This document shows positions 30,695 through 33,372 of a stretch of DNA of 64,000 bases, piece after piece. The DNA comes from Candidatus Bathyarchaeota archaeon (GTDB lineage Archaea; Thermoproteota; Bathyarchaeia; Bathyarchaeales; Bathycorpusculaceae). The stretch spans positions 448,001 to 512,000 of the forward strand of contig OY970340.1 of assembly GCA_963717465.1 (NCBI GenBank), written 5' to 3'. Within the stretch, counting starts at the first letter, position 1. Every line of letters starts with the position of its first letter. The notes below the pieces were generated by a model. It was not told the DNA's origin. It ran no database searches and was given only the letters and a program-made list of their open reading frames with translations. A program made the translations under genes and the position numbers.

Positions 30695-30713
30695 ATTAAA
30701 AAAGAAAAAAGGG
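30695..30713 (-). terminator. Oligo-T archaeal terminator after the oxidoreductase gene
   Basis: Minus strand CCCTTTTTTCTTTTTT about 20 nt after the TAG at 30731. Confidence 0.6.
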
Positions 30714-30730: not shown

Positions 30731-33034
30731 CTAGGAAATGTTCGCTGAGTACACTTTTGCAAGGTTTACTTTGAAGCACCAAGCTCCAAGTTCTGGACTT
30801 AGCTGTTCAGGGTCGTCTGGGATTGTTTGATTGATGTTCCAATCTAGCCATCCGTGAAGACTTGGCTCTTCACCTGGTAGCTCAGGACGCCACCAACTGT
30901 GCTCAGGATCAATAACTTTTGGATTATGACCAAAGTCATATCTTACTGTCTGTCTGCATCTACCAACGGGAGTTTCGATGTAAACCCATTCACCATCTCC
31001 AATACCCATGTTGCGCGCTGTCAAAGGATGCATCTTCACACGCGGAACAGGACGCAAATGCCTCATTAAACTAATATGCCGTAGCTCAGCATGGTGTGCT
31101 TCTTGGAATCTGGCACCACTAGTCATGATTAAAGGGTAGTCCTTGGCTATATCAGGAGCGCTGATTGGCGTCCACGCATTCTCCACATAATACGGCAACG
31201 GATTGTACTCAAGCTCCTCCAGAATGGTTGAGTAGAACGCAACCTTGCCCTCAGGAGTACCAAAACCAACCGCCTCTCCCGTCTCCGAATCGAGCTCCGC
31301 ATACTTCTTGAACCTTGGCTCCCATGGCGGCACACCCCTCCATTCCTCATTAACTTGCTTACGCGTCCAGCCAGTTGGCTCATAGAAATAGTCCTGAAAT
31401 TCCTCCAAACTCTTCCAAGTCCAGGCTTTATCAACTCTTTCCTTACCAACCACGGCAACCGCAAGATCGCGATATATCAGTGCGTCATCTCTTAGATCCC
31501 ACAGTCCAGGTATTTTCTCAGGCAATGCACGATCACCAGCAATCTCAAACTCAATATTCCCCTGACATGAAACAGTCGCGTAGCCAGAAGGCCTCTCAAA
31601 TTGACTGGTGCCAGGCAGCACATAATCTGCAATCATAGCCTCAGGAGTCATCTGAGCACATTCAATGTACACGAAGAGTTCAAGCTTCTTTATGCCCTCA
31701 TAAGCCTTTTTGATATTTGGATAACCTCTCATCGGACCTACTTCACCGCAAATCATCGCCTTGATCGGATATGGTTTCTCAGTTATCATTGCATCTATTA
31801 GGTCAGGGAAAACTGGAGCTAATGGTCCAGCGCTTCCAGGGCCCTTCCAATATCCTCTAGCCATGCTTGCCATACCAATGGCGCCACCACCGGGAACAGT
31901 CAGCATTTTATATTTGTCCGAACCTATCTGTTTCATCATGAAACTTGGATCGGACTCCATAAGAATATTTGTAAACGCTTCACTTCCCGTGCGGAATTTT
32001 GGTTTTGCGTGTAAGTATTCGCCGCCTTCTATGTCGATGTTGCCTGTTAGCGCTGGTAGCATATATTTGGATCGCACATTACTCATGGAGTTCCTGCCTG
32101 ATGATTCAATTGCGTAGCCGTATGGGAACGTGCATGGACGGTTTTTCACTATGAATCTGGCTGCTTCTCTAATCTTTTCAGCTGGAATCCAAGTTATTTC
32201 CGCAGCCTTCTCAGGCGTATACTGCTTAACACGTTCCTTTAGCTTATCAAATCCAAAGGTCCATTTCTCCACAAACTCATGATCGTACAAATCCTCCTCG
32301 ATGAGGACATTCATCATAGCCAGCATAAGAGCGGTATCAGTTCCAGGCCTAATCGCCAACCATAATTCAGAATTTCTAACAGTTTCAGTATAGCGTGGAT
32401 CGACGCAGAGCATTTTCGCGCCACCCTCGACTGCTGCAACAAAGCCAGGCCATGAATATGTCCAAGATTCACTGGGATTCGTTCCAATCGCAAAGATACC
32501 TTTGGTCTTACCAGGAATCATCATTGCATATGTTAATCCCACGCCATAGCCTAATCCTAAGGCTTGGTACGTGGGTCCAGCTCAGTGTGTCGCTGCAACA
32601 GGCCCAAAGTTAGGGCTGCCCAATAACACATGGAAAGGCGCACAGCCAAGACCTAGGTTAGCAGATCGACCAGTGCCGCTAATGCCGCATACAGATTCGG
32701 CGCCATACTTTGCTACAATTTCCTTTACTTTAGCAGCAATTTCCGAAATAGCTTGATCCCACGATATTATTTGCCACTTCCCTTCACCTCGTTTGCCAAT
32801 ACGCTTCAACGGATACATGGGTCTGTCTCTATGGTAGATGTACTCTACAGAGTACTTCCACTTCTGACAATAAGGCCCAGGATTAAACGGACTTTCCCAA
32901 TCAGGCTCAACTTTAGTGATTTTACCGTTCTCAACAGTCTCAAGCAATTGACATGATCCAGTACTACAGAAACCGCAAATACATCTATGCAATCCATCGT
33001 ATTTCTTCGGGTCTTCAATTTTAGTTTCACTCAT
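30731..33034 (-). CDS. Mo/W-bis-PGD oxidoreductase, acetylene hydratase-like, candidate selenoprotein (U151), 767 aa
   Basis: [4Fe-4S] motif CGFC.TGSC...C, YPLKR..RGEGKW..ISWDQA, RPGTDTAL, DYVLPG..FER and C-terminal HP..A...GI.DG motif. ORFs 32582..33070 and 30731..32542 share a frame, separated only by TGA at 32582-32584. GGAGA precedes ATG 33034. Confidence 0.88.
32538..32575 (-). promoter_or_regulatory. Candidate bacterial-type SECIS hairpin 6 nt 3' of the in-frame UGA
   Basis: mRNA UGA-GCUGGA-CCCACG-UA-CCA-AGCCU-UAGGAUU-AGGCU-A-UGG-CGUGGG: 14 Watson-Crick pairs, G-containing apical loop about 23-25 nt from UGA. Folded by hand. Confidence 0.65.
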
Positions 33035-33115
33035 TTTTCTATCTCCTATTACTTTATGTCTTTGAAACAAGTTAATATTAAGGTCTGTTTAATATTTAAG
33101 GTTAAAATATGAGCC

Positions 33116-33134
33116 TGTTTCAGATTTTGAGACA
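33116..33134. promoter_or_regulatory. Imperfect palindrome (candidate operator) upstream of the oxidoreductase TATA box
   Basis: TGTTTCA-GATTT-TGAGACA; extra half-site TGAAACA at 33063; minus-strand CTTAAATA at 33093-33100. Confidence 0.4.
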
Positions 33135-33372
33135 AAATAAGGCAAATCTGCTAATTTAGTTGCCACAGGTGCGGTTTTGACCCTATTTTTGATAAAAAAG
33201 TGCAAAGTCTAAAACTCAATTTAATAAAAGTAATAAGAATTGGAACAAATTTCCATGATGGAGAATTAAGAGGCCTGAATTATTTTCTTAAACGAAACTT
33301 TTTCAAGATTAAATAGTAACAAGTTCAGTAAGTTTTAGGTTTTCCAAATAGCAATAATGTTGTGTATCAATT

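Follow-up and report, generated by a model that had tools for sequence, protein, structure and literature searches.

In bacteria, a selenocysteine insertion sequence (SECIS) is a stem-loop that lies in the coding sequence directly 3' of the UGA codon for selenocysteine (Sec) and serves that one codon (PMC4989117, PMC13188914). Here we describe a hairpin in a like position in an archaeon. It lies in a stretch of 64,000 nucleotides (nt) from a Candidatus Bathyarchaeota archaeon (the window: positions 448,001 to 512,000 of the forward strand of contig OY970340.1, GenBank assembly GCA_963717465.1), where it follows the single in-frame UGA of a minus-strand gene for a predicted molybdenum/tungsten (Mo/W) oxidoreductase, and we propose that it is probably a functional, local Sec-recoding element in the coding sequence that is read by archaeal machinery.

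The likeness to the bacterial element may extend to the apical loop, which is small and contains G. The distance of about 22 nt from the UGA to the apical loop is also within the range of bacterial SECIS elements. Unlike in the bacterial SECIS, which has G at loop positions 1-2, the loop found here (UAGGAUU) has G at positions 3 and 4; the stem starts only after a fixed 6-nt spacer, leaving the UGA outside the stem; and the genome has no winged-helix SelB domain, no SelA and a tRNA-Sec of the 9/4 type. Bacterial tRNA-Sec has an 8/5 acceptor/T-stem arrangement (PMC9499178). Given these three differences in machinery (reader domain, SelA and type of tRNA), the hairpin falls outside the bacterial SECIS system.

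The SECIS elements described for Euryarchaeota and Asgard archaea serve the same kind of machinery as is found here (PSTK, SepSecS and aSelB), lie outside the open reading frame (ORF), have defined core motifs and act over distances of 88 to about 680 nt (PMC11227280, PMC4989117, PMC9622424). [quoted passage not shown] Unlike these, the structure described here lies in the ORF beside the codon, and no such motif was found in the flanks; judged by position and motifs, it is not a euryarchaeal or Asgard-type SECIS. According to PMC11227280, PMC13188914 and PMC9622424, the SECIS elements of archaea are located in untranslated regions, and their binding factor is not known.

With respect to machinery, the closest described system is that of Bathyarchaeota and Archaeoglobi (Mukai et al., Front Genet 2022, PMC8762117), which has the same components, with a PSTK-aSelB fusion next to selD, SepSecS and tRNA-Sec. 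Neither SECIS nor hairpin occurs in the main text of that paper, and the cis signal of the fusion system is not described there. With respect to position, a further relative is the selenocysteine redefinition element (SRE) of eukaryotes, named in PMC4989117. In the details credited to Howard et al., the SRE is reportedly also an ORF hairpin, located a few nucleotides 3' of a Sec UGA, occurs in a system lacking a SECIS-binding SelB domain, and works together with a 3'-UTR SECIS. It differs from the present case in that flank comparison and pattern scans found no distal SECIS partner here. No description of an in-ORF Sec hairpin in archaea was found in the open-access main texts of PMC11227280, PMC13188914, PMC4989117 and PMC9622424, nor in those of PMC8762117, PMC9499178, PMC5424206 and PMC11291895. 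The PSTK-aSelB fusion is known already, and the pairing of an in-gene hairpin in the bacterial position with archaeal machinery is not described in the main texts of the reviews searched.

Results

A hairpin lies six nucleotides downstream of the selenocysteine codon

The UGA is codon 151 of the Mo/W enzyme gene (32582..32584 of the window, minus strand) and is predicted to be read as Sec; its alignment column holds Cys in all 12 aligned full-length homologues (P0011 and others, 39-44% identity), and a stop is found at the identical column in all 8 aligned paralogues. TGA is otherwise a normal stop in this genome (G000; 3.05 Mb in a single contig, 88% complete by marker count), where it ends 471 of 1797 ORFs of at least 200 aa (26%). 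On the same strand, the UGA is followed by the 6-nt spacer GCUGGA (32576..32581), which reaches to the first paired base, and by a 38-nt hairpin of 14 bp (32538..32575). Read from 32575 to 32538, the 5' strand consists of CCCACG, a UA bulge, CCA and AGCCU, and the 3' strand of AGGCU, an A bulge, UGG and CGUGGG; the apical loop UAGGAUU (32553..32559) starts 22 nt 3' of the UGA.

RNAfold returned exactly this 14-bp hairpin as both the minimum free energy (MFE) structure and the centroid, at -19.9 kcal/mol for 61 nt. Dinucleotide shuffles of these 61 nt averaged -12.85 (standard deviation 2.5), giving the native sequence a z score of -2.82, and one of 200 was as stable. As a position-specific measure, we used the energy (kcal/mol) of a closed hairpin starting 4-8 nt after the UGA. 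By this measure the target scored -18.8 and its synonymous-codon shuffles averaged -9.5, with 2 of 150 reaching the native value; scores of -14 or better were found after one of 300 ordinary TGA stops and after 5 of 400 random sense codons of this genome. The minus-strand letters and the folding thus confirm the hairpin proposed in the initial annotation, a 14-bp bulged stem with loop UAGGAUU placed 6 nt after the UGA.

The hairpin is conserved and covaries among UGA-bearing paralogues

A tblastn search showed that the genome contains 11 UGA-bearing copies of the Mo/W enzyme gene, with UGA sites at genome positions 124642, 132694, 480584 (this window), 617083, 1134713, 1211628, 1822504, 2055182, 2378454, 2495990 and 2799134. 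Three of them (132694, 617083 and 2799134) are interrupted. Identity to the target is 69-80% for ten copies and 44% for one; the family further includes a C-terminal fragment and two distant relatives of the Cys type. A closed hairpin of -14.3 to -20.7 kcal/mol follows the UGA in all 11 copies, after a spacer of 6 nt in ten and of 7 nt in one (MopB_H), and its loop varies between UAGGAUU and the forms UAGGGUU, UAGGAGU and UGGAGUU. The initial annotation had placed the structure in the ORF directly after the UGA. This holds, the UGA being at the metal-ligand position, and the hairpin is kept throughout the UGA-bearing family.

The paralogue alignment (n = 11) indicates that it is the pairing that is conserved. 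Standard pairs fill 89% of the pair cells, as against 23-47% when the partners are slid, and 5 of the 14 pairs are altered on both sides; neither the paired fraction nor the covariation score was reached in any of 500 shuffles, and RNAalifold recovered the two outer helices. In the most divergent copy (44% identity), a change of Thr ACG to Asn AAC is compensated by a change of Val GUG to GUU, the sole GTT among the stem codons thus pairing with the sole ACG-to-AAC change. Rare codons are otherwise kept in the stem: CCC (15% of Pro codons) in 11 of 11 copies, ACG (15%) in 10 of 10 and GTG (16%) in 10 of 11. Among the seven intact close paralogues, synonymous-codon identity was 0.746 from U+1 to U+15 compared with 0.572 gene-wide (rank 7 of 730 windows), and the top window of the whole gene (0.774) begins at U+2. 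The peptide 3' of the U is itself unlike that of Cys homologues. Since the copies are kin, the paralogue counts overstate the number of independent observations.

Similar hairpins follow unrelated selenocysteine codons

Altogether, 16 UGA sites of the genome were examined, comprising those of the 11 Mo/W paralogues, hdrA, flpD, two sites in a methyltransferase-like gene and selD. The spacer is 6 nt at 13 of these; it is 7 nt in MopB_H and 4 nt at the first methyltransferase-like site (MT2_U1), and selD is without a hairpin. In the hdrA-flpD fusion gene, a hairpin begins 6 nt downstream of each of the two UGAs (-24.3 for hdrA and -20.8 for flpD), and the second UGA of the putative methyltransferase-like ORF (genome 2822987-2824300, minus strand; in-frame TGAs at 2823619 and 2823439) has a hairpin of -16.6, also at a spacer of 6 nt. 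Synonymous shuffles reached the native hairpin in 0 of 150 cases for hdrA, 0 of 150 for flpD and 1 of 150 for the second methyltransferase-like UGA. Loop sequence differs between the genes, being AAGUAUA in hdrA and GGAA in the methyltransferase-like gene. Taken together with the paralogues, these data show a hairpin that is present and conserved, keeps a constant spacing and is linked to the UGA codons for Sec.

The selD gene (locus L084, genome 951400-952900; UGA codon 18 at 951702) stands out in this set, the remaining 15 Sec codons having a hairpin at 14 sites and only a weak one at MT2_U1. A ranking by hairpin strength of 2535 in-frame TGA read-through candidates yielded no further supported selenoprotein, and 14 further candidates selected by coding potential and hairpin were rejected as adjoining same-frame genes or non-coding frames, none of the 14 having a Pfam domain spanning the TGA. 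As a separate observation, the stops of the 13 selenoprotein genes (11 paralogues, hdrA-flpD and selD), which are not independent genes, comprise no TGA, 11 TAA and 2 TAG, compared with 26% TGA genome-wide.

The contrast between selenocysteine and cysteine forms is clear at hdrA and weak at flpD

A comparison of Sec with Cys forms of the Mo/W enzyme itself would require close relatives with DNA, and among those found (five loci at 27-33% identity on genome contigs and three at 27-37% on metagenome contigs) none is close enough. In a phylum-wide search, the enzyme was found in none of 10 genomes of the same genus at an E value of 1e-30 or better, and the best matches outside the genus were 41-43% identical and without TGA. 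Since these searches gave no close Cys form of this enzyme, hdrA-flpD was used instead. Among 251 genomes of the class, four UGA forms (this genome, G558, G570 and G573) and 26 Cys forms were found, with 62-78% local identity. At the hdrA site, all four UGA forms have hairpins of -19.3 to -25.3 with a spacer of 6 nt, and the best of the 26 Cys forms reaches -16.6. At the flpD site, where the four UGA forms have scores of about -20.9, Cys forms overlap with them (see Discussion). Sec and Cys forms are thus well separated at hdrA and poorly separated at flpD. The four UGA forms of hdrA-flpD are probably one clade.

The selenocysteine machinery is of the archaeal type

The initial annotation had suggested that this archaeon uses a horizontally acquired bacterial SelA/SelB system, a suggestion that does not agree with the gene content. 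SelA was not found in this 88% complete genome (best TIGR00474 match 20.5 bits against a cut-off of 267.9). SepSecS is present (400 bits) and adjoins a tRNA-Sec gene, and a 732-aa ORF directly after selD encodes a PSTK-aSelB fusion (Pfam KTI12, GTP_EFTU, D2 and aSelB_III), as already published for Bathyarchaeota (main texts of PMC8762117 and PMC9499178). Its aSelB part (residues 276-727) aligns with residues 19-478 of the 482 of Methanococcus aSelB (4ac9), and bacterial SelB structures align with it through domains I-III only (residues 280-575). No winged-helix domain, the bacterial domain 4 that the initial annotation had proposed to look for, was found in the fusion with Pfam or in the alignment with its structural relatives, and the aSelB part aligns end to end with 4ac9. 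Both tRNA-Sec genes read as 9/4, with a 9-bp acceptor stem (including a U:U mismatch) and a 4-bp T stem. As predicted from these genes, the Sec machinery is fully archaeal, consisting of SepSecS, PSTK-aSelB and a 9/4 tRNA-Sec. The unusual architecture for which the initial annotation had argued therefore stands as regards the in-gene signal, and differs in its reason, the machinery being archaeal and not bacterial.

The fusion is in one frame in three of four relatives checked (G396, G558 and G570), the copy of G573 being split by a TAA. The present genome has a second PSTK-aSelB fusion of 730 aa with rewritten GTPase motifs (GHCKHGKT, EMPGN and SKID) at genome 2827363-2829555 on the minus strand (L002, 1081-3273), adjoining the second tRNA-Sec (anticodon TCA, genome 2829638-2829725, minus strand). 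This degenerate copy was considered as the reader of the hairpin and is an unlikely one, because G558 and G570 have hdrA hairpins and, like G396, one match each to the fusion.

No distal SECIS was found in the flanks

The gene ends in a TAG (30733-30731, minus strand), and an oligo-T tract, TTTTTTCTTTTTT, which is a probable archaeal terminator, starts 21 nt after it (30698..30710, minus strand), as the initial annotation had noted in arguing that the 3' flank has no room for a UTR SECIS. In all 11 paralogues the stop is followed by a T-tract within about 15-35 nt, and in one of them the next gene begins about 50 nt downstream of the stop. Beyond these T-tracts, the paralogues have few short matches in common in their 3' flanks, the longest being one of 41 nt between copies F and I; their 5' leaders contain at most weak hairpins of 4-5 bp, and no conserved block was found in the 3' flanks of the four Sec hdrA-flpD genes.

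Pattern scans, run without a positive control, gave no matches to the GAA_A pattern in the 11 paralogue 3' flanks (503 nt each), the 11 5' flanks (300 nt each) or the four hdrA 3' flanks, and the GAA_A bulge is absent from the in-ORF hairpin as well. In scans of the same kind, again lacking a positive control, the AUGA..GA pattern occurred at chance level in all flanks (8 observed, 8.1 in shuffles), and the Asgard-like SECIS pattern had no match in the 3' or 5' flank of the target at a stem length of at least 7. Across the whole window, nothing in Rfam passed the gathering thresholds, and its SECIS families gave no match at E values up to 10 or 5 in the gene region and four other loci. By patterns and Rfam, then, no SECIS of the euryarchaeal or the Asgard/eukaryote-like kind was found in the flanks, in line with the view taken in the initial annotation.

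Two strong hairpins, GCUAACGAGCGCCGCGCGUGUUAGC and CGUACCAU...AUGGUACG, lie after the T-tract downstream of hdrA-flpD (genome about 1519530-1519630, minus strand, roughly 290-390 nt past the stop). They reach -29.7 kcal/mol together in a 100-nt window and are not conserved in three relatives.

The host enzyme and its upstream region

The gene containing the hairpin (30731..33034, minus strand) has 767 codons when TGA is translated as U, with Sec at residue 151. Its product contains the Pfam domains Molybdop_Fe4S4, Molybdopterin and Molydop_binding, and among solved structures its closest relative is the acetylene hydratase of Pelobacter acetylenicus (PDB 2e7z), which matches residues 18-755, nearly the full length, at an E value of 7.8e-110. 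None of the NCBIfam equivalogs reaches its cut-off for this protein, the best being PhsA (252 bits) and Fdh-alpha (243 bits). From its domains, its relatives and the U in the Cys column, the protein is assigned to the acetylene-hydratase branch of the molybdopterin (bis-molybdopterin guanine dinucleotide) oxidoreductases. It differs from acetylene hydratase in having Sec where 12 homologues have Cys, 2e7z itself being outside that alignment, and in being present as 11 UGA-bearing copies in this genome. In public gene calls, the closest relatives (P0001, P0004-P0006, P0008 and P0009; 65-97% identity) are proteins of 560-607 aa that cover only the part after the UGA, and these selenoproteins are therefore annotated elsewhere as truncated proteins.

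Upstream of the gene, blastn-short and inspection by eye identified a box common to the paralogues, TTATTTTGTCTCAAAA (33140-33125, minus strand), a TATA-like box, CTTAAATAT (33100-33092, minus strand), and a ribosome-binding-like site, TAGGAGAT (33048-33041, minus strand), before the start codon. The form of the upstream box that the paralogue 5' flanks have in common is TTTTGTCNCAAAA, and it occurs together with CTTAAATAT and TAGGAGAT (region 33041-33140, minus strand). These common boxes suggest that the family may have one shared regulator.

Discussion

The reading that we favor is that the hairpin acts locally, in the coding sequence, to recode the UGA as Sec. By analogy, its position and geometry make it likely that it works as a bacterial SECIS does, with the difference that the machinery reading it would be archaeal. 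We infer that it binds something, raises Sec insertion and is the only cis signal of the gene. With the UGA in the ribosomal A site, the 6-nt spacer would bring the foot of the stem to the mRNA entry channel, a geometry known from work on frameshift and read-through stimulators. The hairpin would then favor delivery of Sec-tRNA(Sec) by PSTK-aSelB over the action of release factor, and it could do so in either of two ways: by tethering, in which it would hold the PSTK-aSelB-GTP-Sec-tRNA complex directly or via an adaptor, or by pausing, in which it would slow the ribosome and thereby let Sec delivery compete with release factor.

Several results weigh against this reading. When folding is unconstrained, the 60-nt target (MFE -19.9) is not exceptional relative to its synonymous shuffles (mean -15.9, standard deviation 3.5; z -1.13), 132 of 1000 being as stable, because the Gly/Pro/Ala-rich peptide folds under any codon choice; the shuffles themselves are well below the genome background of -9.1, so the peptide supplies much of the folding potential. 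The same test gave z scores of -1.0 to -1.9 in the eight closest paralogues and of -2.0 to -2.9 in three divergent copies. The comparison with codon-shuffled sequences that the initial annotation had put forward thus comes out both ways: the position-specific hairpin is rare among shuffles, and the unconstrained MFE counts against the hairpin by the standard set there, namely greater stability than codon-shuffled controls. Its question of whether Cys homologues have the hairpin equally is likewise answered differently at the two sites of hdrA-flpD. At hdrA, all four UGA forms are stronger than any of the 26 Cys forms, 4 of which nevertheless reach -14 with a closed hairpin starting at 4-8 nt; at flpD, -14 is attained by 10 of the 26, and a single Cys form (-22.0) surpasses the UGA forms. 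Furthermore, the hairpin at MT2_U1 is weak (-7.6, spacer 4), the selD UGA is without such a hairpin both here and in two relatives that keep the UGA, so the hairpin is not a universal requirement in this organism, and the scans for a UTR SECIS had no positive control. Finally, with the 11 paralogues being kin and the four Sec hdrA forms probably one clade, the number of independent events is small.

An alternative is that the hairpin is a helper like the eukaryotic SRE, slowing the ribosome or raising efficiency, while an unrecognized distal SECIS carries the specificity. The SRE stimulates recoding, which is the kind of role that such a helper would have. Since selD keeps its UGA without a hairpin, another route of UGA decoding must exist in the cell, and the SRE is listed as a known class of element (PMC4989117). 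In several paralogues the short 5' leader contains a weak hairpin of 4-5 bp, which also fits a distal signal, and the lack of TGA stops among all 13 selenoprotein genes, in a genome where TGA ends 26% of long ORFs, might hint at a signal that acts on the whole message. Against this stand the flanks themselves: those 3' of the 11 paralogues have few short matches in common and those of the four Sec hdrA genes no conserved block, oligo-T follows within about 15-35 nt of the stop with one neighboring gene only about 50 nt away, and neither SECIS patterns nor Rfam found anything in the flanks searched. On balance we consider a helper role the less likely of the two readings.

It is less probable still that the hairpin simply follows from the protein sequence and the GC content of the region and has no role in recoding. 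GGN, CCN and GCN codons are mutually complementary, which agrees with the low energies of the synonymous shuffles and with the 132 of 1000 that match the native MFE, and some flpD Cys homologues fold as well as the Sec forms. The peptide after the U, however, is not that of the Cys homologues, and such an origin would not account for the outcome of the position-specific test, in which 2 of 150 shuffles reached the native value at the target and 0-1 of 150 did so at five other sites, for the rare stem codons that are fixed in the paralogues and the compensatory changes, or for a 6-nt spacer that is fixed at four unrelated gene sites when the hairpin is nearly absent at ordinary TGA stops. Another purpose tied to the gene, for instance pausing translation while a cofactor or cluster is inserted, or stabilizing the mRNA, is very improbable: the hairpin does lie at the metal-ligand loop of the enzyme, where a pause could in principle help cofactor loading, but a like design follows the UGAs of the unrelated HdrA, FlpD and methyltransferase-like proteins, and at hdrA the hairpin is stronger in every UGA form than in any Cys form. 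A bacterial-type SECIS served by acquired bacterial SelA/SelB, which the position, spacing and loop distance would suggest through their resemblance to the loose bacterial consensus (PMC4989117, PMC13188914), is refuted for this genome (a single contig, 88% complete by marker count) by the lack of SelA, the presence of SepSecS and PSTK, the 9/4 tRNA-Sec, a SelB part that is archaeal through domain IV and without a winged helix, and a second SelB-like gene that is also a PSTK-aSelB fusion, and its probability is accordingly negligible.

A local element read by archaeal machinery thus remains our preferred explanation, and it admits a broader and more tentative extension. Archaea with fused PSTK-aSelB may use a third mode of recoding, in which an in-ORF hairpin 6 nt after the UGA is the only SECIS and is read by archaeal-type machinery without a winged helix, perhaps via the extra PSTK part or by the ribosome itself. 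If this possibility were borne out, whether the SECIS lies within the gene or in a UTR would no longer be a trait at the level of domains, and its local form could either have arisen by convergence with bacteria or be ancestral.

If the hairpin is indeed a local recoding element, a lineage that combines archaeal machinery with local, in-gene signals would break the rule that archaeal SECIS elements lie in UTRs, and a role would be suggested for the PSTK-aSelB fusion, which is otherwise unexplained. A defined RNA of 38 nt would also become available as bait for the archaeal SECIS reader. The same arrangement would account for the failure of selenoprotein finders geared to UTR elements to detect these genes, whose database relatives are called as truncated proteins of about 600 aa, and it marks the 11 copies of this family of Sec-containing Mo/W enzymes as genuine genes rather than pseudogenes.

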